Shown one piece after another: positions 1-40,370 of a stretch of DNA of 64,000 nucleotides (positions within the stretch are counted from its first letter, which is position 1; each line of letters begins with the position of its first letter). Both the position numbers and the translations under genes were made by a program. The DNA is taken from positions 33,916,001-33,980,000 of the forward strand of contig OZ076409.1 in the NCBI GenBank assembly GCA_964187785.1, in the 5' to 3' direction. The notes under the pieces were generated by a model. The model was not told where the DNA came from, made no database searches, and saw nothing but the letters and a program-made list of their open reading frames with translations. Source of the DNA: Amphiscolops sp. MND2022. Its lineage: Eukaryota.

Positions 1-155
1 AGAGAGTATAATACAAGACGGTTCCCCCACCTTGGGACTGGCTCCTTCGGAGGGAAAATGAGCTAGAGCCGCGGAGATCTGGGTCCCAGATTATATTCGC
101 TGTTCTGGTTCCTCCACCCTACGTTGCGGTTCAAGCGCCAGCGCTTATCGTTACA
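1..155 (+). repeat. 3' part of 5' LTR
   Basis: Ends in CGTTACA. Identical to 17691-17845 except at positions 10, 11 and 118. Confidence 0.97.
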
Positions 156-170
156 TTGAAACTCATTTTT

Positions 171-186
171 TGGCGACCACAGAGGG
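171..186 (+). promoter_or_regulatory. Primer-binding site (probably tRNA-Arg type)
   Basis: TGGCGACCACAGAGGG. TGG complements tRNA CCA, and the rest resembles the complement of tRNA-Arg 3' ends (...GUGGUCGCCA). Lies 15 nt downstream of the LTR end. Confidence 0.75.
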
Positions 187-2741
187 CTTTCCCTAGCGGT
201 TTTTAAAAGATCTGGCCCCCTGGTGATCAGCGCCAAGCCCGTTTTCGACTCTGGACAGGAGAGAAGCAGAGTTTTACCTCTTTTTAGTCGTATTACGTCT
301 TACTGGAACTGGGAGAGGCGTTGAACCAGAGAAAATGCCGAAGAAAACGTGTTTTCAGGTGTGAAAATGGTATTTTTGGGCATTTTAGAAGGAAATCGCT
401 CCTTAGGTGTGATGTGTTGTGTACCCATCAGCGGGTACCTTTTTGCAGGTGTAGAGGACCGTAGCACGTGGCTACGGGTGTCTAACAGGTTTTTTGAGCT
501 ATTTTCAGCCATTTTATGCCATGCAAGAGGGTAACGGATGGATGGTTTACCATACTCCAGCGAGGCGAAGGAAGGGACGAATCTTGTGTTGCCTACTTCC
601 TATTCCCATTTCTCGTGGAGACGTCCTAGAGGCATGGTTTTTGGTGGACAGCAAGTGCAACGACAGACGGTGCTAATGGTCCCACCCGCGTGTTTCTGTC
701 TGGTCTAGATGTGGAGAAATAACGTGGTGAAGATGCATCCCTTGTGACCAGATGTGTCGCTCAGATGGAGTATGGTTGGCGAAAATTTCGAAAATACACC
801 TCTTTCGATGGAGAATCGTTGGTGCAGGTCAGTGACGTTCTACTATAAATGTAACGACACCCTACGAAGTGCTTTTCTGCGAAAAAGATAGCACTTGGAG
901 AAAAAACCTCATTTTTGCGTTTTTTTGGTGTTTTTCTTGGTTTCGAGCACTAGTGCTCACAGAAGCCAGGAAAGTTTAGTAGAAAGTTTTGAAAAAGCAG
1001 CTGCAAGGCTCGAGAAAGCCGGCACGAGGCACGAAAGGTGAAGTTGAAGCCTTTGATTGTGATAAAAGTGCCAATTTGATGCCGAAAAATGTGAAAAAAG
1101 TGGAAATTTGGCCAAAAAGGCACCCAAAATGTGAACGTACACGAGTGTGGAAGTGTAAAATGACAGTGTACGGCACTGCCCCAAGTGTGGTTGACCCTCA
1201 GGATAGTAATTGCAACTTTTGTAGCGGACTCAGGCAGCCTGGGGCTGATACAGTGTGAAAGACTTGTGATTTTTTGCATTTTCGAGCAGAGAAAGTGCAT
1301 TAACCGAAAACACCCAGACCGAAGTTTATTCGAAGAGAGCGGGCTCGAGCGCTCTCATTTTCGATGTTAGCAGCAAAAACGACGCATCGTGGTGAAAACC
1401 GCGTGCAAAAATTCCTTTTCAGTGCTGAGAAAAGTGGAAAAACGCACTGAATTTGATCAATTGTCCACAAAACTGGACTGTCGCTGAGCTAGGGTCGGGT
1501 CATCGATTCCTGAACCCTAGCCAAAAAGTGGTTGCATTTTCGTAACTACCACAAACATTAACGTTAGTGCCGAAAATTTGGTGAGCGTGTCGCTCACCAA
1601 AGTCGAGAAAAGCTCTCTGACGTTTCGACTTCAGAAAAGCATAAAAAAGCCGAAAATAACCATAACTGCAGGATTGTCAGTGCCCTATACCTAAAGGCAC
1701 AACCAATTGAGGGTTTATCCCAGTGCTACGGATAGTGGGGCAACATGTTGGTCCCATTTTGCCTGCCGTATCACTTTCTGAGGTGATCCTCTTGATCAAT
1801 TTGTGAAAAAAGTCGTCAAAAAAAGTGTTTTTTGGTGTACAACGTACATAGTGGGTCGAAACCTCAAATAAGCGTTCGCGCTTTAATTCGACCATCTTAG
1901 TGGCATTGTAGGTGCCCATTGGCGTAAACTACTAAGTTTGGTGCCGATCCGTGTGATACTTGTCGAGAAAATAGAAAAAACGTGGAGCCCAAAAAGGTGT
2001 CCAAAAAGGCAGTTTTTTCTTAACTTTTCCAAGTAACCCGGGTACCTTAGCCGACGGGTGGGGCCATATTGCAGCCCATCATTGTAACTTGTGCTAGTTC
2101 CTACGTTGTTGCAGAGCTTTTGAGCTTGCTAGCTCTTTCCAGTGGACCGCAATCTTGAAAAAGACGTGAAAAACAGCGTATCTCGGTACATAGTGGTACC
2201 GCACGTCTGCACCTAGGTGAAACTGTGTTGAAGGGGCGCAGCTCAAAACCGTGTTCATTTTCGTAAACCTACGTGTACCTAAGATCTGCTGGTCAATTTT
2301 GGGCTTGATACAGCGCTTCTAGCGCATACACGAGCCTCTTGAGTGTTGTCGTGCGAATTTTGAAAAATCCTAAAATTCTTTGAAGTCCTTCCTGTGAGTG
2401 ACCGGAGACTTTCTGCCCCAAACCAAGTTGATTTTCTGGCCCAGTGCGCTTGTGAGAAAACGCTGTGCAAAATTGAACAGCCTACAAGCTCTGGAACGTG
2501 CTTCGAAAAATCAAGGACATTGAGTAACATTAAATTTCTTAAGTGCTCACCGGGACGACCAAGGGATCAGCCTCGGATTGAAGACCCTGCTACGTTCGGC
2601 GACCCAATTTGAGTCTTCCGAGTAATCGTGAGCGGTAACTCGATCGCTATTAATAAGCGCGTGGCCACCGAACTGATGGCGGTGCCCCATACAGGTTCAC
2701 AATCGTGGGTTACGATAGATGGTTCGCGTTTTTCAGACGAC

Positions 2742-5700
2742 ATGTCTGACGAAGTCACTATCGAACAACAGCGAAAAGAGGAATTGGCCGCTATGGTTCC
2801 TCCCTCAGAGAACTCCAGTGTTTCCGAAAATTCGCGTCGGACCGAGCAGTGGGTCGACGAAACCTGCCGCGATAGAGTCTGAAGTGGAGGAGGGCTGGCC
2901 CAATTCGAATGCAACTGATGAATTGGTGGCTGAGGAAGGGTGCTCGCGCGCACCCCCGGCTGGAGAGACACGACTTGGCTCGCAGACCGATATGGAGCAG
3001 GACCTCACTTATGTGGGAGGCATGAGTTACGCGAGACAGCGAGGACTCGGGACCACTCGAGGACCTACCGGGGTCTGTGCCTACGGAAAGCACAAGAAGG
3101 TGCGACCACCCATACTGCAGGTAGGCGAACCACGTCAAGAGGCATCCCGTGTTAGGAGTATGACAGGTTCATTGGCATCATCGCCACGGTCTTCGGTATA
3201 CAAGGCAGCGCTATTGGATGCCCAAGCCGAAACCCAACGGGCTCTAGCAGGTCTAGCCAGCACTCGTGCTGAGTGCAATGAGCAACATCTTGCTATCGTG
3301 GAAAATATTAAACTGATGCAGACTACGATGCGTGAGGGCCTGCAAGTCAGCGATCAATTGCGTACCGCGCAAAACGTGCAAAATGATCGAGTGGACACAT
3401 TGGGTCACCGGATGGGAGAGATGAGATGAATGACATGTTGATGGCTCGCGAATTGCGCGTGGAAACGCAGATCAACGACTTAAGCAATCAGATGCACACA
3501 GTACTCAACGCCATCGATGTAATGAGGCGTGAGAAGTCACTCCCGCGACAGCCCAGTGCAAGTGGAGGCGTGCGGAATGGAGATCCAGTCCGTATCTCGG
3601 AGCCGACGTGCCCGAGCCAGGTAGTGAAATCCGAACTGCCAAGTGCGTTGAAGCCTAGCACTTCCAGGCCGGCAGTACCTGCGCCCCGGAAAAATGAAGG
3701 AGTAGCCGGAAATTTGGTGATAGCCACGCCTGAAGCAGAGCGCAAGCCTGCACGAGTGCAGATGAGGGGACATCACGACTCAGCAGAGTCATCGATGCCT
3801 TCTGCAGCCCAGAGCACTACTCGAGATCAAGGCGTGGATCCGATGTCAACCATCTATCTTGATTCTTCGGTTGACACCAAGGCAACCCTAGGTTCTCAAA
3901 CCGAGGGAGCAACGTTTGCAACTGCCCCCATGTCGACGTCAGGACCAGACTCCTTAAACTGGACAGCAGACTTGTTAGCCGATCATGGACTGCCCTCGGG
4001 CACTCCCTGTGCTAGTAGCACTCGCAAGAAGGACGAAATCGCTGACCTGTCAATACAAGCCACTCTTGGTAGTCATGACAGGACGCGCGAAGGGGAAGCT
4101 AAGGTCGAAGAAGGAGAAGCCATATCCCCTGAGCAGCTGAGATTCACGGCCGCCATATCAAAGGCAATGTCAAAAGAGTTAGCGCCTTTACTCGCCGGCA
4201 GAGAATTGGCTCAGGCGAGACCTAATCTATATCGCGGTTCTGAAGACGGATCCATTGATGGGTGGATCCTTATTATGCAGAGATACCTGAAGAGAACGCA
4301 AACCAAGGTCTCGGCCGAGGACCAGGCCTGGAGCGTCATCAGTCACCTTGAAGGTGAAGCCCGCAACTACATCATTAACAAAGCGGAATCCGAACGTGAC
4401 ACCCCCGAGAAGGTGTTCGAATTGTTATCCAGCCGCTTTGGCGCTGGAGGAAATCGTATGCAAGTACGACAAGCCTTTCAGAGCCGCATTCAACATGAGA
4501 AAGAAGACTGGATGCAGTATTTAGACGCTCTAGAGGGTCTTAGGAGTCAAGGATTCCCGCAAGAGGCAATCACTACCAAGCGCTACGAAATCCTCCAGCG
4601 CTTCATGAAAGGCGTACGAGAACCAGCGCTGAGGCGGGAACTATCTATAGTGTATGCCTCGGAAGTCTTCCTGACCGAACCACCTAATGTGGAATCCCTT
4701 CGCTTCACCACCCGCCAATTGCAGCGCAATCGTCCCAAACCTAACCAATTCCCTCAACCCTATGACCCCAGACTAGCAATGAGGTCTAGACCTCATCCCT
4801 TCGCGCCACTACCCCCCAACAAAATGGTGTTACCACAAGGAGTAATGCCTCCCCCACCTGCGAGCAATGCCCCTCCAAATCAGGCAGCAGCGCGGCCTGC
4901 GGCACGCCTACCCGTTGGAGCATGCTTTAATTGCGGTCAAGCTGGGCATTTTGCCCGGGACTGTCCCACCCGCGATCAGGCTCGCAAACCAGTGGCAGCT
5001 CCCGAGCCAGAAGGCGTGAAAGTCACTGCTGAAGACGTAATCGACGGTGTGTTGGAGAATTATCCAGGCATTCATCAGTGTGCGCACTGTGGAGTCTCTG
5101 ACCATGTGGATGTCCCCTGTGGTGAGCACTCTCAAGCTCCAAGGCCTAATGATGAATTGGCCTATAATCGATGGGCCGAGGTGGAATCCGCTGGTGTGGC
5201 CGCCCACACGGTACCCCTGGAGGATGATCGCGTGTTAATGCTGCACCCAGCGGAGCCCCCAGCGTTTCATCCCCCACTGATAGTTACGTGCGGAACAAAG
5301 CAGATCCAAACGTGCTTGGAGCCCACCACGTTCGATTCACAAGGGAGAACGTTGATCTCGATTCATCTGATGCTGGCAGCCGAGCAGGTGCGTAGACCAA
5401 CGCCAACCTTGGCGAAACTCTGGGTTGAGCTATCTGTCGTCTATAACCGGATGGAGTTGCCCCGCCCAAAGCAGTGGTACGTCCCTGGAGAGTCGGAGAC
5501 CCTGACTACATACTCGCCAGTACCGGTTTGTGCAACAATGGACGGCGTGGACGTGAAGTTTGAGGCCTGTGTGGTGGTAGGTGTATTCCCACCCGGCTTA
5601 TGCTTGGGACCTCAAGAGCTGAAATGCTATAATATCAACCACCAAGAACCCACCGGGGAAGCGCGGATAGATGAGCGTGCGTCGCTTGTTGTCTCTTTTG

Positions 5701-6509
5701 TGGTGCCCCATGCGGCACCTATTCCACTGCGAGGTTTGGTGGATACTGGTTCCGGGGTGTCCATACTAACCTTCTCCGCCTTTAACCGGGTAGCTGCACG
5801 GACCGGTGCGGTCCTGAAACCCTATCAAATTGATTTGTACGCTGCCAACGGGAAGACAATAAAGACTTTCGGGTTGGCTGAGCAGGTACGCTTCCAGTTG
5901 GGAGGGTATGAACTCGAAACCAATTTCGTCGTGGTAGATGACGCAATGGGCGTGGAGGACTTTCTGTTGGGTCGAAACTTCCTCCGTTCCTACCAAGTCC
6001 TGGTAGACCTAACCTCCATGAAGATAGTGGCGCGAGCACCAGTGAAGCCCGTCTGGCATCATGCACACACCCAGGTAGGTGATGCTTCGCTAACTACTCC
6101 CATTGCTCTGGACAGTGACCTGGTCCTACAGCCTTTCGAGCGTACAGTGGCAAAGGCTAAACTTGTCACCAACGCGCTTGAACCATTAATTTTCCAGACC
6201 GTGGCGCTTAACGCCTCGTTGTCTGACCCCTCATTGCAAAATACCATCTTTTTAGAGGACAGCGTGGCCACTGTCAGTGAGACAGGAACACTGTATGTGA
6301 GTCTGGTAAACCTCACCAGCAACCAGCAGCGTGTACGATGTGGTGCCCACCTGGGCACGGTAGTGCCTGTGTCTTTAGTATACCAGGCTGTGCCCCAAAA
6401 GCTGGATGCTACTGCAGAAACTGACCACAAAACTGAAGCCGACGACAGTCGAGCAAATTTTGTTTATAAAGTGTACAGTGAAATGAACCTGCCACTGCTT
6501 CTGAGTTAA
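2742..6509 (+). pseudogene. gag: Gag-protease region (N-terminal coiled coil, capsid-like region, two CCHC knuckles, aspartic protease, dUTPase-like region)
   Basis: ATG at 2742 joins ORFs 2628..2882, 2719..3429 and 3426..6509 through two frameshifts; one is a 5-nt AGATG duplication at ~3418-3428. Knuckles CFNCGQAGHFARDC and CAHCGVSDHVDVPC. Protease LVDTGSGVSIL...FLLGRNFL. Confidence 0.9.
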
Positions 6510-9500
6510 TTTCTTCATCTGAAATTGAGTTTTTATCTTCGACGGACCCAAGCAAAGCAGGGCTTTCGGAGCGCGAGATTCGCAAGCGCACCGATCCGGA
6601 CCTATTGGCCCCGATCCCTGGGCCCGATTCTCAACTGCAAGAAGTTAAAAAAAACTCTGGGGCGCTAGCGCCTGCGAGTCCTTGGACAACATTCTTAACG
6701 AGTTTGATGACTTATTCATGAAGCGTAAGGCGGATATTGGCCGCTGTACCATTGCTAAACACACGATAGAGGTAGAGCCTGGGGCTGTACCGCACCGTGA
6801 AGGTGCTCGCAGAATGTCTCCCGAAAAGGCTGAACGAGCCAACCAGGAGGTTCGGAGCCTACTGGCCTTAGGGATGATACAACCTTCACTGTCCCCTTGG
6901 GCAAGTGGCATCGTAATGGTAAAAAAGAAAAGCGGGGAGTAGCGTTTTTGCTGTGACTTCCGACCGCTGAATGAAGTAACCATTAAGGATGCCTACCCCC
7001 TGCCCCGCATCGACGAAAGCCTGGCGCGACTGGGCAATGCAAAGATCTATACTAGCATAGATCTTGCCTGGGCTTTCTGGCAGATTCCGCTGCGAAAGGC
7101 GGACCGCCACAAGACAGCTTTTGCCTGTGAGTTGGGACTCTTCGAATGGCGAAGAATGCCATTCGGCTTGTGCAATGCATCAGCCACCTTCCAGCGAGCA
7201 ATAGCGCGAGCGCTACAAAAAATAGTTAATCGCAAAGGCATCATGGTCATGGCATACATCGACGACATAGTAATAGCAACGGAAACTGTGGAAGATCACA
7301 TGGCGCGTCTGCGCGACGTCTTTGAATGCCTCCGCGAGGCTGGTTTCAAGATGCGCGTAGCCAAATGCGACTTCATGAAACCAGAAATCAAATATCTGGG
7401 ACGCGTAGTCTCCGCAGAAGGCGTCAAACCGGACCCGAAACTGTTGCCAAACTGCGCGATTGGGACATCCCTCGCAACAAAACGGAAATGCAAAGTTTTC
7501 TGGGATTCGCCAATTATTATCGTGAATTTATCCCATGGCATGCCAAGCTGGTTGCGCCCCTCCACGCCGTTACTGGACTGAACGCCACGTTTGCATGGGG
7601 TCCTGATCAGCAAAAGGCCTTCAACGAAATCAAGAAAGCATTGATCGAGGCGACTGCGCTCGCGCAGCCTGATTCTGAAGAAGAGTTTGTGCTGGACACT
7701 GATGCCAGCGCCGTGGCCATTTCCGGCGTCCTACACCAGTGGCAAGGAGCTCCAGGAGAGCGACGCCTACGACCGATCTTATACGGCAGCAAGAAATTGA
7801 CCACCACCCAAGCCAAATATGGGGCACCCAAACTGGAGATGTTTGCAGCCTACTACTTCATCCTGAAATACCACAGCTACCTTTGCCCCCGAAAGTTCAC
7901 CCTGAGAGTTGACAATCAAGCCCTATCCTGGTTGAAAACCTACTCCACGGACCAAGCATTGATTGGACGTTGGATCATGACGCTGGACAGGTATCACTTT
8001 CGTGTGGAACACAGACCGCGAACTCAACACCGCAATGCTGATGGCTTGAGCAAACGAACCAACGATTATCGATGCCGAGAACAGCAGCTTGCGCAGCTGC
8101 CAGCTACCGGAGAGCGTTGGAATTTCCTCTCGGCCGAGGAATTCGACAACCTCCCCGTAGCCCCCTGGTTCGACCTGCAAGGTCGAATAATTCCAAATCA
8201 TCCTGACCTACCACTGCATCTGCAGAACTTGGAGCCTAAGGCTCCTGACCAAGCACTTCGTGTGCTTCGCCGTGTGCAACGAACGAACAAGCGAGAACGA
8301 CAGGCAAAGGCGCTAGCCGCACCTTTACCGCCTCAGCCTCCACCCGTGCTGCAAAAGCACGAGGACTTCTACCCAGACTATCCTGAAGATTGGATAGACG
8401 TAACTACTGAGGCAAGCGAGGATTACCTGCTGCCAACACATGCAGTAAACGTCCCCTCTCGCACCATCTATTCAGTGGCGGAAACGAGTAACGCCATGCT
8501 ACAGAACTCTCCTGGTGGCGTGCGCGAGTCGATTATGGCCCTCAAGGACATTGACACCGAGCTCCATGAACACACTCATACCGTACATGGGATCAAGGAT
8601 TTAGTCCTAGCCCAAAACCGCGATGTCCATGTGCTAGCACTAAAGAAGCTCCTGCAGTGTGAATCCCTAGATAACGATGTGTTTCCCGAGAACGTGCGTG
8701 AGTTCGCACGTAACTACTTCCGCCAGAAAAAGGACCTCTTGTTCAATAACAAGAATGATGTCCTTTGCGTGCAATACTCCCCCACCCAACGCCCATTGCA
8801 CGAACGTCCGTGCATGATCATAATGCCTCAGCTATACCAGCATGAGATTCTGTTCCGTGCGCACGACGCAATGGGACACCAAGGTATCTCAAAAGTGGTA
8901 GCTCGAATTCAAGAGCGCCACACTTGGCCCGGCATACGGCGCAGTGTCGGTCGATACGTCGGCCAATGCCTCACCTGCCAACAAGTACGTGACAAGCCTG
9001 GTGACATACGAATTCAACTGAAAAACATTCAGAGTGGCTACTTCAACGAGTTGGTCCAGTATGACCACTTAAAAATCTGCCCCTCTGATAACAACAACAC
9101 CGGCATTTTGGTCATCATCGACCATTTCTCTAAATTTGCAGAGGCAGTCCCTTGTAGTCACCATGACTATGACGCAGTGACCACCTCACGATTGCTGCTG
9201 CAGAAATGGTTTGCCCGCCACGGCACCCCCACTCGCATGCAATCGGACAATGCTCCCAACCTTACTGCTGAAGTCTCTAATGAGTTCTTAAAGGCAGCCC
9301 ACGTCACTAAAGTGACCTCTACTGCCGGACATCCACGAACACAAGGTTTGGTGGAACGCCAAAACCGAACCCTCTTAACCCTGTTGCGAGTCTTTTGCTC
9401 GCGCCGCATGCGCGACTGGGACCAATGCTTAGATGAAGTGATCGGTGCCTATAATTCTACCAGGCACGCCACCACAGGCTTCTCGCCCTACATGTTAACA

Positions 9501-12013
9501 AGGGGTGTTGAGAAAGCAATCCCCCTCACCTTTTTGTACCCTGAATTTGCGGCCAAGTCCTTTGATACGCATGAAGCATACGTGGATCATGTGTTGGCTC
9601 GCCAACAAGAAATTCACGACTTGGTCCGGCGCAATACGCACCAGGCCCAATTACGCCAAAAATTGAAATATGATCGTGCTATTCGAGCACGAGCCTACCA
9701 GCCAGGAGAGCCTGTCTGGGTTTTTTGCCGCTACGTGCCTCAAAAAGGCTTCCCCAAGCTGATGCGCGCCTGGCGTGGCCCGCACAAAGTAGTACAAGTC
9801 TTTCAAGAAGGACGTGTCTACGTGTTGGACACAGGCCAAAAGGTTCATTTTGAGCGCCTAAAACCTCATCACAGTGGGCCCCTTGAGCTCGCCACCGCGC
9901 AAGCGGACAGCGGCGAAATAGTGGTACTCATGGACCCTGACCCTGAACGTTCTATTGAAGTAGTTGACGACGATAAGTCCCAGCCTTCATATAAAACTGA
10001 ACAACTACTTTCAGAAGCATCTGACGTATCCTTGCCTTCGCGCAAGCACCATTGGATGGATACCCGTCTGCGCACAAAGCTACGTGCTGGAGGTTCCCGC
10101 ATGCACTACCAGCAGTTCGACTACTCGACCTCGGGCACTGACGACGAATTATCCGAAATCATGTTACCGGTACCTCCCGATCCAGTTGATGCTGATCGTA
10201 GGGAACCCGAAGTCCCCCAACCCCCATCAGACCAATCAAACCATCGTCTACCTCAACTATTCTCAGACCATGAGCGCGCGCGCTCTCCGTCACCACAAAT
10301 ATCTTCCCCCGAAAAACAGCCCTCATTATTGGGAACCTCGGCCCCATTACTGACAAATCCATCGCTAACGAGTTTCCTCAATAACTATCCCATTTGGCCG
10401 GCCGCTCCTTCCCTCCCTCTGAAGTCCGCCACCGAGGATGACGACGCTCAATCCAATGTGCCTACTCTTCCCACGACATTGCCCGGAGCGGGGACCGCTC
10501 CTTCTTTCAAAAGGGGGAGGGGGAGACCACCCAAAACGCGAAAACGGCTGGTTAGAGCGAAGGCAAGAACGAGGAAGAAGGAAACAACAACAACAATGCC
10601 ATTGGAAACAGCAATGCCGACCGAGGCTTCTGAGGTCCCCCGATACCAGTTGAGAAGCAGGCGGCAACCACGCTACAAATGCGGGACCTGTGGGCTGCGA
10701 GACTGTGTTTGCTTGCTAGCCGTCAATGAGAACCGGAGGGTTCCCACTGGAGCCCGGGGAGTTCCTCCGGAGCGGGGAGAAAATCTAGTACATCGCCTTA
10801 CGGTGAGAGCTGAGAAGACTTACTCTTCCCTGGAATGACACGGAGACCATCCCGTGGAAACTATTCTGGAGAAGTTATCATCACCTGGAGTAGCGAACGC
10901 TCCATGTCCTCGATTCAAGGAGTGGACTAGCGACGGAAAAGGGTTAGAGTTTACCCTCGCAACGGTGATGCCCCCAGTACCCAGCAATATTGCGTTTGGA
11001 CCCTTCAACTTCGAGCGGGAGCCTGTGCAAATGGTCCGATGCATCACCGCTGATCTTCTCTGTGACAAATACGGAATTCACGTGGATCCGGGCGGAGTAT
11101 ACAGCCCAGCGCCGCACTGGTGGTTGCTGGTTACTGCTCCACGAGTGGAGGCAATAGTGGAACCACTGCACCTGCTGTCCTGCTTGGAAGGTCTGAGGAC
11201 CCTCACTACCGCGGACTTGATACTTTGCTTCCACATCATAGACTGGTATCGTGGCAAAGTGAAATTCGCGTGGTGGTTGGAACTAATCATCACTTGTTTC
11301 ACCAATTATCCTCGCATTAGATTGCTGGATGAGTGGACTCATACTTTCGAGATTCCACTTCCCTCAAAAGCCGCTTTGAGCACCCTAGACACATAGGTCA
11401 GGGCGAGCAGTGATAATCGAGCGATGCCACGCACGGTGTGGCAAGACCTGGCTGCAATCCAGTGGCGTACGCCCCGCGTATGCTTACCTGCTGACAATGG
11501 GCCGGGGAGAGAGATTATCTACCCGGGAATTCTGCATCCAGCCCCAATAGAGCACCTCTCGTACGATGTGACTGACTTTCTTCAAGTAGAAGGTGATATG
11601 GTGTTAGCGTGTCCCGCTGACCTAGAGACCAACTCAGCCGCCCTACGGTATATGCTACGAGAATGCGGCAAGGAGAATGTGTTCTCCTTACGTCCCAAGG
11701 TGGGGGAGATTCTCACCATTCCCCCTGATATCAACCCAAACCCCAATCAGAGTGTTCACTTATTGATAATCAGAGCAAACCAGCGTGCGCCGCTGCTCTC
11801 CGACGACTACCTACGTTGTATGACACACTTAATACAGCGTTTGATAGAGAAAAGATCCACGAGGTTCCACCTACCTATATTGAATCCAGAGCGACCCGCC
11901 CTCTCATTGGTAAACTAATACCATCCCTAACGAATTTGCTGGAGGGCACTGGCATTCACGTGGTGCTGCATAACCGCGTGTATGTGTCCATTCTGAGCAT
12001 AGGGCCAGAGTAG
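6490..12013 (+). pseudogene. pol: Pol: reverse transcriptase, RNase H, integrase and long C-terminal extension
   Basis: RT motifs SPWASGIVMVKKK, RMPFGLCNA, YIDD, YLG. RNase H motifs DTDAS, KLEMFA, VDNQAL, NADGLS. Integrase HHCC (HDAMGH...CLTC), D-D-E (YDHL, SDNAP, VERQN) and GPY/F-like WRGPHKV. Lesions: frameshifts at ~6490, ~6650, ~7440, ~11915; stops at 6940, 10836, 11394. Confidence 0.95.
10944..11975 (+). other. Two tandem TARG1/OARD1(Poa1p)-like macrodomains at the end of the pol frame
   Basis: ORFs 10854..11396 and 11424..11918 are in the same frame as pol ORF 7326..10838. By eye, both follow the TARG1 pattern (LAHCISED / GEVAVL / IYYLITK / LQKSLEAM / LSMPRIG / EVFEATDIKITVY). Confidence 0.65.
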
Positions 12014-12248
12014 CCCGCCCAAAACTCTTTTCTGTTGCCCCCAATTTAATTTATTTACCCCGATAATTGTCATGTCTGGGATGAAGTCTTAAACTATCCC
12101 ATGAAATGATTACCTTGTAACGTGTCGTTAAATAAATCCTATCTTTGTGTTCTAGTTAGTTAGTTGAACTACAATTTAAACTTGTTGCGGTTCCCCTATG
12201 GAACCATCTTTGTTCATAGTGGCCGCCCTGCTCACTCAACTAGACACA

Positions 12249-15200
12249 ATGCAGACGCTGCCGGGCGTATCTGTGTCTCTGGTGACGGAAGTGGCCGGTT
12301 ACCGTCGCACGCTAACCTGCCAAAACAATGCGTGGGATAGCCACGATTTGACGCATCAGTTCTTGGATGAACGCTCTACCACGGTGCTCGGGCCTAGCCA
12401 GGGCACGAGATTCGAACAAGAAGCTTCTCTGTGCCTGCCAGCGTTGCAACGATGCCACCTCCTCAGATGGTCGCATTGCCCCCACCAGCACCAAAACCAG
12501 TACCAGTGACGTCAACTTATTCCGGTTCACCTGCCTTTGGGACCTCATATCGAGCGCCACATATGGTACTGCAAACCACTACTAGTGCACCAGTCTCTGA
12601 TCGGGAGCCCTCGGGGTCCCGGTTACCACCCATACCTAACCCAGAGCTGACCGGAAGAAGTACCAGCGAACAGGCCGTAATTGTGGCCTTGTAAGCAGTG
12701 GCCAACTATCCGAACTCCTCCGATTTTGTTCGTGCCGTAGAGCAGAGAATCCCTGGACTAGCCACTTATCTGCAAGCTGCTGTCCAGCCCTCGGGCTGTG
12801 ACCCTCCTGACCCCTTAGTGGAGACGGCATCTATGGATGTGGAAATTGCTGCCGGACCAAGCAACAGCACAAGCGCTGCTACTGGCACACGAGAAGAAGC
12901 CGGGAGAAAGCGACTAACTGAAGAAACTGCCTCAGTCACCCCAGCTAGCTCAGTAACCGAGAGCCCGACTAGTCGTCCCCCTCCCGATAAGCGCGCTGAT
13001 GTACCTCGACCCCAGCTGAAAAGTGTAGTCATCCCAAGGCCTCCGTACCGGGTGGGTAATCTAGGCCGAGGCGCGCCTCAAATGTCTTTAGCGGACGCGA
13101 TCGAGCAGTATGGAGATCCGGATGCAGGATCGGAAGTGAGCTCTGTGCCCTCGGGCACGAATCCAATAGATATGTCCCTGGAGATACCTGAGACGGTGGA
13201 GGAGGCCCGTCCTCCAGCCTTCCTCCCTCCATCTGATGACGTATCCGGTTCAGTAGTCACCAATGATAGCAAACGCATTTGGATGGCGGCTGAGCATCTC
13301 TACCCCAGTCAATGCGCTATAAAGAAAAGGGCCCTTCCAACTGAAACGGAGCAAAAGGAGATTAACCGAACCACGATACCAGCGCAGGTCACACGTTCGC
13401 TGCGCCCCCGGGACGCGGATATGTCGGAGCAGGCCTGGGAACAGCGTGCTCGAGAGCAGCTGCCTACGACAACTAACGATTACATGGCACCCCTGCAACA
13501 CGACATCACCGAGCAATTCCCCGCACGGTATGTGTTGCGCGAAGGTGAGACATGGGAAGCGAACGCCCGCTACGCCCGCAACTTAAGATCTCTGAAACCA
13601 CTATTGAAAGCAGCTCTGCAGCGCGCGCTACTGCATGGCGGTTGATTCTACCTGCCGGAGTGACCTGCCTATCGACAACTTGATGCCTGACGTGCTGGTG
13701 CTGACTATGCCCCTGTCTCGCTTCGCTGAGATCGCTGAAATGGTTGGAGCCATATACGATCCAAACTTAAGAGGATCACAGAAGGAACCACCCCCACAGC
13801 GTGTGATCTTTGCCAATCTTCTGGATCACATGGCATGCGAAGGGTTGCTGCGTGACCTGGACGCTATAATGTCCGATGTCCGACGACCTGGAGAAATTGC
13901 AGCCCTGGTAAATGAGGTGGTCGGTGCAATGGAACGTGCCGCAGGGATCCTTCGGGGTCGCCTGGGAGCGCTCGCGCTCTTTATATCCCCACCGGGATTT
14001 ATGTACTGGCCACGAAGTCTGCAGCAGTTTGTTTACATTCTGCTGGAGGTATGCAAGGCGCGCAGAGTCGAATTTGCCATCTGTGCACCAAACTTGCGTG
14101 TGGACCGAGAGGACCTGCGCCCAGATACCTTATCGTATCCAGCCTTCTTTGCCGCCGTATCTAGAGCACTCGTGGCTATGGAACGCTCAGGAAACGCCCA
14201 GCTAACCATTGACGACGCGATCCTCTATGATCATGGGATGCGGATGGGCAGAATGGCCTTTGACCTTGACGGCAACCGCATCGCCCGAGAGTCAAATGTG
14301 ACCGAACGAGAGGCTGTTCGTCGGTACAACTGGCTAGTGCGAAAGGACAGAGAAATCCCAGTGCGTGCAGAGTTAGCCGAACTGACAAAACAAATCGATG
14401 CATGGCCTGCAGCGCGCACCGTAGAGATAACAATCCCTCAGATCCACTTCGCCTCAGGAATCGAGCCCGTGAAGCTGCCTGTAGGACTGCGATGCATCGT
14501 GGCAATGGAAGCAACAAATCTGAAGGCAGAGGTCGACGCCGCAGCTACCACCTACGCCTATTGGTACCAGACTAGGTTTGCCACCATGACTCTAGCAGAA
14601 GTAGCTCGAGAGCTTAAATTGTCCATTGGAAGCCTTCTGTACCAGTCTTGGTCTGGGATGGAACCTTGAAGTGCTAACTTCGGAGTTTTCGTTGACCCCT
14701 ACGCAAACGGACAAGCTACTAGAAACAATTGGAGAGGCAACTGTTGGAGAAGTACTAGCGCTCGCGCTAGCGATGGGTCCAACGAAGTTTGTAGCCGGAC
14801 CACTAGCCCTATTTATCGACATCGTGATTGCCTGCGACCTCGCCGTGTTCTACAGCTACTTGGTCCTGGCACAAGGACAACTACGCAGCCTGAACCGCTG
14901 GGGACATTTATTGACCTCCAAGGACCAACAAGATTATTCCGCCCAACTGGAGCGCATGCGTGCGTCGATCCAGCACTGGCTATACTCCACCCTGGTGTTC
15001 GCCTCCGGTCTATTCGTAGGCGTGGACCAATCCCAACCACTACACAACTCAGACCAGCAAATCCCACGGGAAACGGCAGGATTCCCCTTGCCGCGGCAAA
15101 TTGCTGATCTTACCCTGGCTGAGGTAGAGGATTTTGTGGCAGCCATGGCTCCTGTCTTGGCCCCCATCTTCGGCGCGGTGGGCGTATGCCGATACCCTAC

Positions 15201-16360
15201 GAAACCGTTAGCAACAGCAGTCCAAGTGCACATGGTCTCCTTTAGCACCTATCAGCGAGGCCGTCCCTCACTGGCATATCCAAGGGTAATACATGCCGTG
15301 CTGAGTGGTGAAGTACCGCATGGGTACACGACCGTGAAATCCGAAAGAGAGTTGGAGGAGAACCTGATGGGTTTGTTGCGCGCGCACCAGGAAAGCATGT
15401 CCTCTGCCGCGAGAGCATGGGACTGTGAACTGGTACTCCGCACCTCTCAGTTTGGAAGGAGTCCCCTTTAGATTCCCCTGGAGTCAAGAGTTCATAAGAA
15501 AGGCGATTCGCGCCAGCACTAGTGCTGGTCCACCTGTGGACCCTTTATACTGCTTTAAATGCATCGCTTTCCCAAACCGCTATTGAAAGGAGCCGTTGGG
15601 TTGGCCAAGGGCGAAACCCGTTGGACGCGCCCCGGAGGTCTTCAACCGTCAAATCCAGCACTTGGAATCAGCCCAGATCCCAGGATGGATTGAAAGCGCT
15701 GCTCAAATCAGGCAAAGGAATCTCCAATCTCGCGTTACCCCATTCCCCAGGAAGTCGGTGTGGAAGCCTACGGGAAAGATGACTATGTCTGGAGATATGT
15801 CCATCGTCCAGCATGATGAGATAAATTCCGTGTTGGGCTCGACAGAACGAGCAAGATGGGAAGAGTACTGTCTGGAGTTGGAGATTGCAAGCTTCCCTAA
15901 GTGGAAGAGAGCTTGCGAGCTCTGGAGCCAACCTGGATGGATCTCACGCCGAGTCGCACTAGCGGTAGAAGGTAGAGCAGAAATAGCGAGACAACAGGCG
16001 TTCGCGCCTACCATGCTCGCACCAACGATGGCGATGTCTTTGGATCGGCCCATCTCTCAACCGATCACCATTAACCTTCCAACCAACAACTTGGAGCCAG
16101 AACCAGTTGGCCCGTCTTCGTCGCGAACCAGCCCTCACTCCTTGCAGCAGCAGTCCGGAGAGCACACTGCCGAGTTGACTCCCAATGCAGCACTAGTGCA
16201 GCCTATTGCCGAGTTGTCGCTCCCCGAAAGTCCGTCAGACTCTGAAACAGTTGCCACAGAAGTCTCTCCTCGACGTCGAGCGTCAGTGTCGACTGATAAC
16301 CCAGAACAGAACTCAGATGATGCCACTAAAGAGCGGACCCGACGCATTTCGGCTCAATAA
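12249..16360 (+). pseudogene. Additional long ORF (~1370 codons reconstructed): Pro/Ser-rich N-terminus, SGNH/GDSL-like domain, helical region of unknown function
   Basis: Chain of abutting sense ORFs (12198..12509, 12431..12694, 12698..13645, 13635..14669, 14626..15471, 15596..16360) linked by single frameshifts or stops. GC content is similar to pol and the flanks are AT-rich spacers. Confidence 0.8.
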
Positions 16361-17100
16361 ACCCAGCCGCTAATGGGAGCGTTCGCGCTCCCTATACCCT
16401 TGCAGACTGCCAACAAACAGTGCCTTAAAACTTCTCATCCAGAACGGTGCTACAGTACAAAGTGCAATTTTTGTTCTTAGTTATGGTTATATAATTAGTG
16501 TACCTTTACTGTTGCACTGGGTGTATGGCCAATAGAGTACGCCTGCCCCAGTGGCTTGAATTACCAAGCAGAAAGAAGAAAAACTATTAATCAGAAAAAC
16601 TGCTATTTTTGTTGCGCACCGTTCGCGGTGTTTTTGAGTTGTCACAATCAAAAGAAGTTTTATCCCTCTTGATTGCATTTTTCTTTCTAGTCTAGTGTTC
16701 TTCATCAATTTGGTTGTTCACCGTAAGAGCCCGCAAGCTCTGAAAAAAGTTTTTAATCGCCAGAATAGAATTGAAGACTACAAGTGTCAAATGGTAAGAA
16801 AAAGAAATTTTAGCCGACTTGGTCGCAAAAAAATTTTTACGTAAATTGTCTGCCCAAACGAGTTTTAACTGGCTGAAAACTTTAGCTCTCGACCTGGTGC
16901 TAAAACCTCGTTCGTGTTTTGTACAAATAGCTAGGCAGTAAGTCTTTTTTTCTCAAAAAAAAACAGCAAAAACTGACCGAAATTGTTGCCGAAAAACAAG
17001 GACTCGTCCTTGTTCCCCGATGTGTGGATGATGGTTCCCAGCAGTCACCGTGATGCAGTTTCCAGACGAGCCAGACGCCGCTTGCCAGGGACGACAAGCC

Positions 17101-17117
17101 AGGAGACTGGGGAGTGA
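17101..17117 (+). promoter_or_regulatory. Polypurine tract
   Basis: AGGAGACTGGGGAGTGA lies immediately before the TGTAAC start of the 3' LTR. Confidence 0.8.
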
Positions 17118-17845
17118 TGTAACGGCAAGCTCTGGTACAGCAATATCAACCGACGTGTTTAGAAAATTTTGTCAAAAATTCGTTCAAATTTGACGTGGCA
17201 CTCAAACATGCTCAAGACGAAGTACCTGCCAGAAAAAGCACCCCAGAAAAGCAGAAATCGCCGCTCGCGACGAACAAGCACCGGAGACGACTAAAAGACG
17301 TCCCCAACGCATACAGGACACGGTATTGTGTCCATCTCTAGGAGATATCCATTACTACAGTAAAGGAAACCGGTGTTCCAGATGTTCGCCTGAGTATCCC
17401 TGCGGTATCCTGTGTGGCAACTAGCGCTAGCGCTGGGAAGCTGAGGTCAATTTTCATCAAATGACTCTGAACTCTTGATCTCTTGTTGTATTTTTGATGT
17501 GGTAAATCAATATGCTCGAGAGCTGTTGTTTAACATCTGTTTATCCAATTTGGCGATTTTATCAGATTCTCCAATATTACGGTTCAACCGTCATCAATTT
17601 TCAGCCCGATTTTTAAAGGCTAGTCGAGCAGTGGTCTTGAGTCTTGCAAGATGCCTGTTACTTTTAGCAGTTACAGACTAGGACCAGGCCAGAGAGTATC
17701 CTACAAGACGGTTCCCCCACCTTGGGACTGGCTCCTTCGGAGGGAAAATGAGCTAGAGCCGCGGAGATCTGGGTCCCAGATTATATTCGCTGTTCTGGTT
17801 CCTCCACTCTACGTTGCGGTTCAAGCGCCAGCGCTTATCGTTACA
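17118..17845 (+). repeat. 3' LTR (728 bp)
   Basis: 7-bp terminal inverted repeat TGTAACG...CGTTACA. Its last 155 nt match the window start. Confidence 0.95.
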
Positions 17846-19324
17846 TGGCGTTTTATTTCAACAACGCGCCGACTAAAAACGGCGATCTGGGAATGTGTAT
17901 TCCAAATCATTACAGAGCTGGAAACTGCATTATTGGCAAAACGACAGAAAACATAATGTTGCACAAAACTATCCAACGAAAAAAAAACATTTTAGCGATT
18001 CTTCGTTTTTGGTTCCATGAAAAAAAAAGTTTTAGCCCGGCTCTCATTATAAATTTTGGTACAAAAGTTTTTTTTTCCTACAGGAAAATGAAAAATACTC
18101 GTTTGTAATAAAAAATGAAAAAAGTTGGCGAAGAAAATACAGTACGATGTTCCACGTGGACGCCATGTCCGATTTTTATTAGATCTTGCCATGAAAAAAT
18201 TGATGTTCGCATTTACACAGTGTCGTGGGTTCTGAGTAATGAGATCTGATTTTAATTTGCCAGCAAGGAACGAGGACTACGATGTGTCTTTGAAAACTCG
18301 AAGCAATTGCTCAGAGACTATCTATATAGAATAAAAAGAAAATCAGGTATGTTTGTTTATTGCTGTTAAATGATAGATGTTAAAGCAGTGAGCATTCTAG
18401 GTGACCACATTTCAGCTTTTTCTTTATCAAGTTTTGTCATAATCTTATACGTTATATTATCTTATAATTTATGAGCGAATAGTCAGCCTTTCTCTTGCTT
18501 AGCGAGGGTATGCATTAATAAACCAGCGAGGGTAAGAAGCGATCAAATGGGTCCTTTTGGCGGAAAGGGCAGGCGTGCATACGGCAAAGAAGCTCCCGGG
18601 TCCACGTCGTACGGCGTCACCTCATACCAATCACCACTCGTTTCAAAAGTTAACCGACTTTCTCAAGTGTCATTGGAAGTTTTACGTTAAATCCTATTAA
18701 CCATTATATTCAAGTATTCTAGAGAGTGCAGTTGGTGTAAATCTAGAGAAAGATCGGGCATTGGCTAGATTAAAATTTTCAACATATTTCATGATATTAC
18801 GAAAGCTTTGAAATTCTTCAAACTTTTCCGGGAAGCCAACTTCAAAACTTTTTTCATAACAGGTAACCAATTGTTCTCTAATCTGCTAAAAGCAAGCTCG
18901 AACTTGTAGTTAAAAAGTTTACGCAAAAGGTATTAAACGATGGCGAGTTTCTTTGTCAATTGTCAGGAAAAAATCACAGCTTAGGTGGAACTTCTTTCGG
19001 CGTATCCTTCATCGGGTATGTTGCTTGGTGGTGAGTTTAGAATGAAAAATTTGAATTGATAATTCGAATTGTTATTCAACTGTATTTTGAATTTAGCTCT
19101 GCCCCAACCCCAACGTTAGGCAAAACTTTTTTGAGTAGTCTTAAAGGTCCATACATTAAGGTTGTCTAATTTACAACGAAATGCTTTACGTGCATTTTAG
19201 TATTATAGCTCTACATCATACAATGTAAAAATGTTAACTTGTTTATGTATACAATTTGTTTGTTTATTTTAGTTTTCTGGCATATTTTCTTTCACAGTTG
19301 GCAAATCCATGCGTGAGAGCTGGG

Positions 19325-22663: not shown

Positions 22664-22942
22664 AGATGGCCCGGCGATTCGCAACATGAATCGGGGTTTG
22701 CGCGAATCGATTCGCGCAAATCGATTCACCGAAAAACCTCTGTTTTCATAACGTGCGAGCGATTTGCGAATCGCCTCAAAACGGTTTGAGTCAAACCTGC
22801 AATTCGCAATTTTTAGCCCCCCCCCCCCCCGAAGCGCGATTCGCAAAAACGGGGTTCAGATTGGCAACCCCGAAACGATTCGCGAGAATGAGACGATTCG
22901 CGCGAATCTGCGAATCGATTCGCGCGAATCGGCCCATCCAAG
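22664..22942. mobile_element. MITE copy 1 (GCGATTCGC/GCGAATCGC-rich)
   Basis: Imperfect terminal inverted repeats AGATGGCCCGGCGATTCGC...GCGAATCGGCCCATCCAAG. Colinear with 23820-24044. Confidence 0.75.
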
Positions 22943-23148
22943 CCTTCAAAACATGTGTAGCATTTTGGCCCAAACGTTCTCGGCAAGCAATGTCTGCTTC
23001 ATTCGCAGGAGCCGACCCAGACAACACCTGAAACACCACTTCTGGGCCACATTTGATGGACAATCCACGAAAATTGGGGGGAACTACCAAAACTACCCCA
23101 AACAATTAAAAAAAAATGCTCAATTCAGAATTTCGAGATTTTTGGAAA

Positions 23149-23303
23149 TTGCTCGAGGTTGCTCGAGGTCGCTCGAGGTTGCTCGAGGTTGCTCGAGGTT
23201 GCTCGAGGTTTGCTCGAGGTTTGCTCGAGGTTGCTCGAGGTTGCTCGAGGTATGCTCGAGGTTTGCTCGAGGTTGCTCGAGGTTGCTCGAGGTTGCTCGG
23301 GGT
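23149..23303. repeat. Minisatellite of 10-11 bp unit GCTCGAGGTT(T), ~15 copies
   Basis: Tandem array visible directly. Confidence 0.97.
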
Positions 23304-23819
23304 CTATTTTTCGAAGATCGTTCAATTCGCATCAATTTCGAAAACTTTTGCTTCATGTTGCACAATTTCCCAGGTTTTTGCCAAAACTGAAGATTTCTGG
23401 GGGGGAAATGATCAGGTGTGACCAGTTTCAGTTTGGCTTCATGATTTTCTTGGTTTGCGTGATAGAGATTCGCGTTGGCGCAAAATTCATGGGCGAAAAC
23501 CCCGAAAACAGTGTGGGAAAACACAAATGGTAGCAAAATTCCAATGATCTATCTGTTTCATGTAGTGTATTGGGAGGATCAACTTGAAAATGTTGCTTGT
23601 TTGTTTGGAACCAGTTGTGTTGTTTAAAAGCAGAAATGAGTTCATGTAGGGCATACGACAAGATCATTGAAGATTATCAGACAAAGAAACAGCTCCAAAA
23701 TTGTTGAAACCGATCAGGGATTGTCATACATCAATGTCATGGATCATCTTCGACGTTATAAGGGCAGTAATCGTTCTCTCATGTCTTGGGGTTAAAAGCT
23801 GTGTTGATGATGTTTGAAA

Positions 23820-24044
23820 CTTAGTTGGCCTGGCGATTCGCAACGCGAATCGGGGCGATTTGCGCGAACAGATTCGCAGAAAACACTCTCTTTTCATAAC
23901 GTGCGAGCGATTCGAGCGCATCGCCTCAAACCTGCGATTCGCAAATTTCGGCCTCCGAAGCGCGATTCGCACAAAAGGGGTTCAGTTTGGGAACCCTGAA
24001 ACGATTCGCGAGAATCAAGCGATTCACGAACCGGGCCATCTAAG
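23820..24044. mobile_element. MITE copy 2 with 8-bp target-site duplication (hAT-like)
   Basis: TIRs CTTAGTTGGCC...GGCCATCTAAG. GTTTGAAA at 23812-23819 and again at 24045-24052. Confidence 0.88.
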
Positions 24045-26229: not shown

Positions 26230-28054
26230 TATAAAATACGCATTTCGCGCAATTTAGGTTATGCATACCCAACAATTCGTAAGTAAGTCATCCCGCTTTT
26301 GATAGAGATTGTTAGGAATTGACAGTGGTGGTTTCTGGAGAAATATTAGAGCCATAATAAGGTTGTAATACTGAGAGTTGTCCAAAATCACTATCAAAAT
26401 GGGCATTTCGTGCAATTTTCGTTCGTACTTGCCCGAGACTCTGCAGATGAATCGTCCCGCGTTAAATAGGGTTATCTACAATTTGATGGGAAGCCACCCC
26501 CAGTAAAATGTAGAAACCTCTGTTTCAAGCGGGACGACTTACATGAGGACCGTCGCGTATGTATATATTATAGTTGCACGAAATGCCTATTTTATGGGAT
26601 TTTTGGCAAGTTCCCGCCAATAATTCGGAAGTAAATCATCCCGTTTTTGGTAGAGATTGTTAGGAATTGACAGTGGTGGCTTCTGGAGAAATATTAGAAC
26701 CATAATAAGGTTGTAGCACTGAGAGTTGTCCAAAATCACAATAAAATTGGCATTTCGTGCAACTTTCGTTCGTACTTGCCCGAGACTCTGCAGATGAATC
26801 GTCCCGCGTTGAATAGGGTTATTTACAATTTGGTGGGAAACCACCCCCAGTAAAATGTAGAAACCTCTGTTTCAAGCGGGACGACTTACATGAGGACCGT
26901 CGCCTATGTATAGACTAAAGTTGCATGAAATGTCTATTTTTATGGGATTTTTAACAAATTCCCGTATCACACTCTTATTAGTGTTACATTCTTCTTCTAT
27001 AAACTAACTGCAGCACAATGAAACAATTTGTATTGTAAGCGGGACCAGTTATGCATACATTCTTGCGTATGCATAAACTAAATTTACACGAAATGCCTAT
27101 TTTTATGGGGATTTTGGACGATTCCCGTATGTCCTCCATGCCATTTTCCAACATATCTCCAAACACCACACCCAACAAACTGTGGAATAGCTATTAAAAG
27201 CGGGACGAGCTTCTTGCGAATTATTGCGTATGCATATATTAAAGTTACACGACGTACCTATTTTTATAGGGATTTTGGATGAGTTCTTGCGAGTTCGTGC
27301 GTGTGCATAAAATTAAGTCGCACAAATTGACATCATTACTACCTCCTTAATATGTGTTTTTTGTTTGTCAGCTGCTACCTTCAACAAACTATATAACAAA
27401 CTATTAAAACCAAGATGATTTATTTGCAAATTCTTGCATATGCATAAACTACAGTTGCACGAAATGCTTATTTCTAAAAGGATTCGGGCGAATTCCCGTA
27501 CAACTGTCCTGATTATCTCCATAATGGGGTTCCCTTAAAAAAAAACACCCCAACGTAATGTCGATATCTCTATAAAAACAAACTGTACCATTTATGTGTA
27601 AATTCTTGCACATTCATAAACTACAGCGGCACGAAATCCGCCCTTTTCTAAATTAAGGTTTGGTGGGGCAATTTCCCGTACACAACAGGTATTAGTGTGC
27701 TAAATTTGTGTCCTAATTCTACTAAAACCCCATGCCCACACAGCCACATACATACATACATACATACATACATACATACATACATACATACACACTCCAC
27801 ACATATCATGATCTGACACATGTCGGCTCTTGTTCGCACAGGCTGGGCGTGTGATCCGAGAACTTGGCTTTCTCGCTTGGTACCTCTGCAGACAACATAC
27901 CACGAGTTGACAGAGGGTGAGACTTGCTGACGCACAGGCTGGGCGTGTGTTCCGTCAACCTCTCTTTGGTTTGCCTTTTTGGGGGGAAATTAGAATCAAA
28001 AAAACCAAGTTGTGATACGGGAGTTGGTCCAGAATCCCTATAAAAATAGGCATT
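26230..28054. repeat. Complex array: ~348-bp tandem duplication plus a recurrent ~70-bp motif with variable spacers
   Basis: 26274-~26615 is repeated from 26622. The motif GTTGCACGAAATGCCTATTTT-ATGGGATTTT..TTCCCGTA recurs at ~26573, 26920, 27083, 27244, 27454 and 27626, and inverted at 28013-28054. Confidence 0.85.
27747..27792. repeat. (CATA)n microsatellite
   Basis: About 11 tandem CATA units. Confidence 0.97.
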
Positions 28055-28254
28055 NNNNNNNNNNNNNNNNNNNNNNNNNNNNNNNNNNNNNNNNNNNNNN
28101 NNNNNNNNNNNNNNNNNNNNNNNNNNNNNNNNNNNNNNNNNNNNNNNNNNNNNNNNNNNNNNNNNNNNNNNNNNNNNNNNNNNNNNNNNNNNNNNNNNNN
28201 NNNNNNNNNNNNNNNNNNNNNNNNNNNNNNNNNNNNNNNNNNNNNNNNNNNNNN
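28055..28254. other. Assembly gap (200 N)
   Basis: Run of N. Confidence 1.
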
Positions 28255-39958: not shown

Positions 39959-40370
39959 TCACAGAATGCTGACTGCTGGACTGGGTTTGATGGTCAGAGT
40001 TGACATACTCTTCTGATAATCACTCTGTTGCAACTGGGCCGCCTGCTGCTGTTTCACAACTTCGAAGTACTTCAAAAGTTGTTTTCTATGTTTCTCGTTC
40101 CCCACCCCTAGTTTCTTCAGTGTCCGTGAGTCCATGTTGCGATCTATTACGTCATCTAGAAGGTGTATGCCGTTATTTTTGAAGCCGGCGCTGTACTGGG
40201 GTAGTTTGAGCTGGGTGAGACATTCCTCTATGGTCCAGAGTCCCCTCTGTTGTCTCTGGGGGGTGAAGCTGCTGAAGCTGCCCGTGGTCGTGTTTTTGGA
40301 GAGCAGGGTGCCGCTGGCGTAGTTGTTGCAGTCGATGTCCATCAGATGGCGGTTAGAACGGGGAAGGGTG
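39959..40370 (-). CDS. Eph terminal exon: SAM domain and PDZ-binding C-terminus
   Basis: TIEECLTQLKLPQYSAGFKNNGI...LKKLGVGNEKHRKQLL; ends AVSIL-stop. Confidence 0.93.

Follow-up and report, generated by a model that had tools for sequence, protein, structure and literature searches.

The first 17,845 positions of the 64,000-nucleotide stretch analyzed here (the window; contig OZ076409.1 of assembly GCA_964187785.1 from Amphiscolops sp. MND2022, forward-strand positions 33,916,001 to 33,980,000) are occupied by a Gypsy-type long terminal repeat (LTR) retrotransposon. The complete element measures 18,417 bp, with 728-bp LTRs and TG..CA ends; its 5′ LTR starts 572 bp upstream of window base 1, and the repeat of positions 1–155 at 17691–17845 represents the ends of the two LTRs, which differ at 6 of 727 positions (0.8%). 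An initial annotation, made from the letters alone, had proposed matching LTRs around an interior of about 17 kb and a leader of 2.6 kb, and both were borne out, the leader measuring about 2.5 kb. In Pfam searches the matches fell in Gypsy order: zinc knuckle, PNMA-like capsid (weak), protease (PR), reverse transcriptase (RT), RNase H (RH) and integrase (IN). The element is GC-rich, with a GC content near 0.52 in its coding part compared with about 0.36 for the flank; an Rfam search of window positions 1–18000 gave no match. The integrase carries a WRGPH motif, read by eye, which we take to be of the GPF/Y type. The proposed gag-pol open reading frame (ORF1) of about 3,000 codons has its domains in order over about 3,100 codons but is not intact, carrying frameshifts near 2880, 3420, 6490, 6650, 7440 and 11920 and stops at 6940, 10836 and 11394. 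The second frame (ORF2), given as about 1,370 codons, does end at 16360, but it spans 1,439 codons (stop to stop) in the two of nine sister copies where it is open, and here it is startless and broken: a deletion near 12215 removed its start and an acceptor-like site, frameshifts lie near 12430, 13625, 14615 and 15380, and stops at 12692 and 15584. With both frames broken, the window copy is dead.

An LTR search of the genome gave 1606 candidates, and among the 40 listed at least 12 LTR pairs were spaced 17–21 kb apart. Nine pairs, spread over five chromosome-scale contigs, were fetched for comparison, and all nine sister copies were colinear with the window copy at about 96–97% identity, private indels aside. 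We used them to test whether other copies lack 10840–16360: the region is present in 9/9 and is therefore not a nested insertion, and the giant, multi-copy Gypsy-type architecture supposed earlier is a trait of the family (family A). ORF1 is broken in all nine. Mobilization of defective master copies is unsupported because the shared frameshift bins are the window copy's own lesions, the remaining 50 of 67 bins being private to a single copy. Two sister copies (L028, L025) are altered further, by nested insertion (about 2.3 kb within ORF2, about 0.9 kb within the 3′ LTR) or by internal duplication of some 1 kb, and one family A copy (L019/L020, G000:C12:28.43 Mb) has mismatch-free LTRs together with several private frameshifts, reflecting LTR conversion or chance.

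The genome holds at least four related families (A, A2, B and C) of 15–19 kb, three of them with many fully open frames. Family A2 is about 18.9 kb long with an ORF2 of 1430 codons (82% identity); B reaches 19.2 kb in two of three copies, with an ORF1 of 3292 codons and an ORF2 of 1478–1551 codons (42% identity); and C, at 14.8–15.1 kb, has an ORF1 of 2999–3116 codons including the tail and lacks ORF2. Across the four families the LTRs measure 714–734 bp and the internal part 13–18 kb. LTR pairs differ by 0–1.5% in A and by 0–0.4% in A2, B and C, those of C being identical in all three copies. Each protein search covered the best 150 of 2500–3600 candidates, figures that are not copy numbers, and many of these best 150 matches lie in open frames of 2999–3310 (ORF1) or 1430–1551 codons (ORF2). 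On this sequence evidence the lineage appears to be recently active, with many young copies.

Two traits of the lineage, a 3-bp target-site duplication and a displaced primer-binding site, are absent from the initial annotation. The duplication is exact in 17 of 18 scored copies from the four families (8/8 scorable A sisters, one fetched A copy being left out of the scoring, and 3/3 in each of A2, B and C), and none extends to 4–6 bp when read by eye. The primer site starts 15–16 nt after the LTR in all four families vs. 0 nt in a control Gypsy family from the same genome, which has a 5-bp duplication and an adjacent primer site (one of three attempts scorable). In A, A2 and B the primer site is complementary over 16 nt to a genomic tRNA-Arg(TCG), in C to tRNA-Lys(TTT), and tRNA genes matching the primer sites are present in the genome. 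Genes for the tRNA-Lys(TTT) that matches the family C primer site also form a tandem array with a period of about 193 bp (G000:C7 from about 5,219,700; L119-L126), which seems to hold most of the 925 pattern matches, judging from the first 100 listed.

According to PMC12440569 (2025), LTR retrotransposons other than Troyka give 4–6-bp duplications and 3 bp is specific to Troyka, and the plant elements surveyed in PMC6317226 have only 4–6-bp duplications. The combination of TG..CA ends with a 3-bp duplication was not found in the literature searched, with Repbase and most subscription journals outside that search. The 3-bp footprint is best read as a property of the integrase, which would make staggered cuts 3 bp apart in the target DNA and, given a primer site 15–16 nt inside, would trim a longer-than-usual cDNA end; we regard these two steps together as quite probable. 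If a lineage with TG..CA ends and a GPF/Y-type motif has a 3-bp footprint, the geometry of integrase cutting would have changed a second time, independently, and LTR-finding programs assuming 4–6 bp could miss the lineage.

We filed the element as Gypsy-type, its membership in Ty3/Gypsy being provisional because the duplication is 3 bp in nearly all scored copies. It shares with Ty3/Gypsy (Metaviridae) the TG..CA LTRs, tRNA primer site, polypurine tract, PR-RT-RH-IN order, CX2CX4HX4C knuckle, PNMA-like capsid and, on our assumed pattern, the GPF/Y-type motif. It differs in its 15–19 kb with 0.7-kb LTRs, single ORF1 of about 3000–3300 codons, tandem macro-type tail, large orphan ORF2, internal primer site and 3-bp duplication in place of the typical 4–6 bp (PMC12440569). 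Troyka elements (Kuafuorterviruses) likewise have a 3-bp duplication, a single Gag-Pol in Gypsy order and animal hosts, but their ends are CG..CG, their LTRs 100–400 bp, their internal part at most 7.7 kb and their knuckle CX2CX8-10HX4C, and they have no GPF/Y motif (PMC12440569, PMC11673190). All five features differ here (TG..CA in four families, LTR length, interior length, CX2CX4HX4C knuckle and GPF/Y motif), and Troyka membership is rejected. Burro/GYPSM1 of planarians are giant animal Gypsy elements with a very long polyprotein, add-on domains, accessory ORFs and very high copy number (PMC6431247); Burro exceeds 30 kb, above the sizes found here, and its 4873-aa ORF1 carries MATH, BIR, ankyrin, BCL2-like and env parts, none of which gave a Pfam match in our element. 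Plant Ogre/Tat elements resemble it in total length (16–25 kb) and in extra ORFs of unknown function, but they have plant hosts, LTRs of 1.9–6.5 kb and an extra archaeal RNase H (PMC6431247, PMC6317226), whereas the LTRs here are 0.7 kb and the host is an animal, judging by the window's Eph-like kinase and SAM exons. Vesta/Juno of bdelloid rotifers carry a non-envelope ORF after pol, some of GDSL/SGNH type, and a domain located between PR and RT; their GDSL ORF3 is recognizable and keeps all catalytic residues (PMC5408684), whereas the core here, inside a 1435-aa protein, is unrecognizable to Pfam.

A quick IQ-TREE analysis of RT-RH drew on 26 proteins and, once shorter matches were dropped, 23 of 45 metagenome loci (49 rows in all). 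Of these, 37 rows formed a single clade (SH-aLRT 100, stem 0.57) with three branches: the families of this genome, a further family D, and loci from metagenome assemblies. The family D marker finds just 32% matches in this genome, and family D is therefore assigned to another host. A viral contig collection contained no confirmed relative.

There is some room for the family being already curated, in Repbase, in Dfam or as the giant Gypsy lineage Daidara, in which case the finding would add one more member to an established group. Neither giant size nor domain capture is without precedent, and captured domains as such are not new: giant Gypsy elements with add-on domains (PMC6431247) and GDSL extra ORFs in rotifer LTR elements (PMC5408684) are known, and the macrodomain add-on is not unique because another Gypsy family in the same genome has a TARG1-type macrodomain at its integrase end. 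On the other hand, PMC12440569 places 4–6-bp duplications outside Troyka, no description of the lineage was found in the literature searched, and none of 22 + 22 + 120 relatives among the matches listed carries a source name; two papers from searches aimed at acoels (PMC9911081, PMC6451197) contain only bulk LTR percentages in the portions available. On balance we consider earlier curation unlikely. The proposal of an undescribed giant lineage with an unmatched architecture is partly supported, for the giant, family-wide layout but not for two of its supposed components, an SGNH-like ORF2 and a doubled protease.

Beyond the GPF/Y-type motif, ORF1 continues into a tail consisting of a linker, the sequence RGRGRP (taken here as an AT-hook), a Cys motif and a pair of alpha/beta domains, with identities of 52% (A–B) and 41% (A–C). 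An AlphaFold2 model of a natural open tail had a mean pLDDT of 58, with domain 2 mostly at 76–88. Its best match was TARG1 (Foldseek E 8e-8; Z 15.3, rmsd 3.0, 141 aligned), a structure search of a viral library returned macrodomain-bearing proteins, and domain 2 aligned with the canonical TARG1-like domain of the other Gypsy family (probability 79%, E 1.6e-5). At the level of the predicted fold, domain 2 is confirmed as a TARG1-type macrodomain, with TARG1/DarG as the closest fold. It is like TARG1/OARD1 and DarG (PDB 4j5s, 2lgr, 5m3i) in fold (Z 14.5–15.3) and unlike them in having only 12% identity, replaced phosphate-binding and catalytic loops, a fusion to integrase and, probably, a tandem arrangement. 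Both glycine-rich loops are replaced, one replacement being DPER, which together with an Arg is invariant across A, B and C, and in the alignments Pro stands opposite the catalytic Asp of TARG1. Given these replacements and the presumed roles of the catalytic Lys and Asp residues of TARG1, the sequence suggests that domain 2 is not a canonical hydrolase. Domain 1, modeled as alpha/beta with pLDDT mostly 60–88, matched domain 2 with E 0.017 and the canonical copy with E 0.076, and the tandem macrodomains of PARP14 align over 110–447, across both domains; it is probably a shortened duplicate macrodomain. The AT-hook/Cys/macro-macro tail of the initial annotation is thus visible and conserved in its first two parts and confirmed in its last macrodomain, the first macrodomain being only probable. 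The integrase of the other Gypsy family ends in a domain with E 1e-27 to human TARG1; this element (L112-L114, L139/L145; G000:C12:44.81-44.83 Mb) is about 13.7 kb long; its 437-bp LTRs are identical and end in GA, not CA, its duplication measures 5 bp and its primer site adjoins the LTR.

The tail, with its AT-hook, Cys cluster and two TARG1-type folds without a canonical catalytic loop, would be a non-catalytic binding module that tethers the integrase to chromatin or ADP-ribosylated partners, claims that jointly fall a little short of an even chance. A host-interaction role of the accessory modules, as proposed initially, is not established. Alternatively, the macrodomains could act as erasers in a counter-defense, with altered catalytic residues that still strip ADP-ribose off the element's protein or cDNA; the closest folds are indeed the hydrolases TARG1 and DarG, and DPER and the Arg are invariant, but with both glycine-rich loops replaced, Pro at the position we take as that of the catalytic Asp and identity to TARG1 so low, we find this doubtful.

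Among A copies, ORF2 has dN/dS values of 0.15–0.40, and two core regions retain 47% and 40% identity between A and B with synonymous sites saturated, indicating that the frame is under purifying selection. The ORF2 ATG is preceded by a pyrimidine-rich AG, at 13 nt in A and A2, where a branch-point-like CTAAC accompanies it, and at 10 nt in B. From this acceptor-like site we predict, with somewhat better than even odds, that a subgenomic RNA, spliced or trans-spliced, would give rise to ORF2. Families A and A2 (L023, L131), but not B, retain a two-codon upstream ORF with a stop codon that overlaps the start of ORF2. Searches with ORF2 and the tail in Pfam, PHROGs, PDB sequences and the ESM Atlas gave no useful match, blanks that signify neither novelty nor absence. 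Among 50% representatives, 418 relatives of ORF2 were found, the most distant at about 28% identity; ten distant clusters were inspected, nine of them without a name and one a "hypothetical protein" on an 816-bp contig. The latter homolog (P0148) is annotated as bacterial, from a metagenome-assembled genome, and is probably animal DNA in the bin.

The ORF2 core starts with a motif order like that of SGNH blocks (VDS; NxxDH), with Ser in 45 of 48 and Asn in 63 of 65 sequences, and, if the fold is right, Arg in 52 of 59 at the place of the block-V His. The comparison with an SGNH profile was colinear over 120 columns, but its E value of 0.08 equals that of a reversed control (0.07), and the SGNH-like nature proposed for ORF2 is not established. 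In one family D protein all SGNH motifs are present (PF13472 E 9e-7, under the cut-off), followed downstream by a homolog of the ORF2 core (probability 49%, E 1.7e-4); this single, rearranged sequence may link the lineage to SGNH capture. SGNH-type motifs also occur in many dispersed ORFs of about 300 codons (L061-L063, L148-L165), some without the catalytic Ser; these are probably ORF1 of non-LTR elements.

Family C has identical LTRs and no ORF2, and ORF2 is therefore optional. We give about even weight to ORF2 being an optional helper that acts inside the cell and has a probably inactive SGNH-like core, and not an envelope. That it is an unconventional envelope or a protein for transfer between cells, and the lineage thereby infectious in the manner of a retrovirus, seems improbable: ORF2 does sit after pol like env and behind an env-like acceptor site, has one or two hydrophobic 19-mers (mean 1.7–2.3) conserved in position, and has a relative with an intact SGNH esterase motif set, from a membrane-linked family; but it has neither a hydrophobic N terminus nor a C-terminal anchor, its Cys content is low, neither Pfam nor PDB sequences matched it, and family C spreads without it.

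In the remainder of ORF1, Pfam gave the Pol order PR-RT-RH-IN and detected no tether domain before RH; the RH-IN spacer of about 280 aa, a site relevant to an extra RNase H, also had no Pfam match. All families conserve the domain that precedes the protease, but its protease resemblance is weak (hhalign E 0.011 over 48 columns, no DTG), and the doubling of the protease is not established. The domain located between PR and RT gave no dUTPase match in the Pfam search, the sole hint of such an origin being PF04797 with E 0.026 in a relative (P0304). In the leader, an 820-nt block (1390–2210) shows 73% identity between A and B but no codon periodicity, and its first 200 nt form stable hairpins (z −2.8 to −5.1, crude shuffle). 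Overall covariation is absent from the block (term +0.39; 15 of 222 pairs changed on both sides), and the block may be either a cis element or a leader exchanged between A and B. A hidden ORF was rejected, as mismatches are even over the three codon positions and no ORF is common to the families.

Taken together, we read the window copy as a decayed family A member of a recently active giant Gypsy-type lineage, with a probability of roughly 0.72 including the proposed mechanism. Ordinary Gypsy-type copy-and-paste explains the element: following established Gypsy biology, RNA from the 5′ LTR would be translated into one polyprotein, cut by the protease and packaged; copying would start from a host tRNA, that for Arg in A, A2 and B and that for Lys in C, and integration would follow. 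Several points weigh against this reading. The flanks of the window copy match at only two of three bases, and only one element serves as control for the length of the duplication. The RT-RH tree came from a quick search, with outgroups all unnamed and no named Gypsy references. The tail model was built from 21 sequences and has a low mean pLDDT, the structural macro match of domain 1 came only from the search with both domains, and the single within-family pair gave a tail dN/dS of 0.51; the SGNH comparison, finally, did no better than its reversed control. That a nested insertion, tandem chimera or assembly artifact made the window copy look giant, as its inexact flanks and broken frames might suggest, is rejected as next to impossible by the nine colinear sisters on five contigs and by A2 and B, which have the same layout with open frames.

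Beyond the reading of a decayed copy from an active lineage, a bolder synthesis can be offered tentatively, as it is well below even odds in its entirety: an unnamed giant Gypsy-derived clade in at least three hosts, whose integrase gained its 3-bp cut independently of Troyka and is guided by a tandem pseudo-macrodomain reader of ADP-ribosylated chromatin, with ORF2 as a new family serving as an optional counter-defense or trafficking module. The four young families, one of them without ORF2, form a natural comparison for the role of accessory ORFs and macrodomain tails, and the same comparison bears on why some elements reach twice the usual size.

Features of the element in the window copy (window coordinates)
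Feature	Position	Strand	Remarks
5′ LTR, 3′ part	1..155	+	whole 5′ LTR 727 bp, 572 bp outside the window
Primer-binding site	171..186	+	15 nt inside LTR end; complementary to tRNA-Arg(TCG) 3′ end plus CCA
Long noncoding 5′ leader	187..2620	+	
Leader block, 73% identity A vs. B	1390..2210	+	without codon periodicity; hairpins in first 200 nt
ORF1 gag-pol, about 3100 codons	2620..12009	+	in pieces in the window copy
PNMA-like capsid region and CX2CX4HX4C zinc knuckle	4245..4975	+	PF14893 E 5e-4 (below cut-off); PF00098 E 9e-8
Conserved domain before protease; possible degenerate protease copy (weak)	5250..5670	+	hhalign E 0.011, 48 columns
Aspartic protease, DTG at 5742	5690..6000	+	
Conserved PR-RT intervening domain; possibly degenerate dUTPase-like (unproven)	6080..6420	+	
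Reverse transcriptase (YIDD at 7255) and RNase H	6750..8000	+	
Integrase: HHCC finger, DDE core, presumed GPF/Y-type motif (WRGPH at 9771)	8826..9880	+	
Presumed AT-hook (RGRGRP) and Cys-rich motif (CxxCGxxxCxC)	10500..10720	+	conserved in families A, B, C
Tail domain 1, probable shortened macrodomain	10980..11330	+	
Tail domain 2, TARG1/OARD1-type macrodomain (modeled fold), canonical loops replaced	11540..11980	+	
Deletion point	12213..12219	+	window copy about 240 bp shorter than 9/9 sister copies
ORF2 remnant (about 1435 aa in open copies)	12219..16360	+	
Conserved ORF2 core domain, SGNH-like motif order, no catalytic His at expected place	13614..14320	+	
Polypurine tract	17100..17117	+	
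3′ LTR, 728 bp, TG..CA	17118..17845	+	

Outside the element, the exons of the tyrosine kinase with a SAM domain (Eph-like) lie on the minus strand at 39959–47931. A 10-bp tandem array (23149–23303) within 22700–24030 is placed between imperfect direct repeats of 57–77 bp about 1.1 kb apart, possibly a small nonautonomous element. Tandem repeats of 347 bp and 233 bp occupy 26269–26964 and 33245–33832, with a run of N at about 28050–28250, and the ORFs at 31701 and 33830 are near-duplicates.

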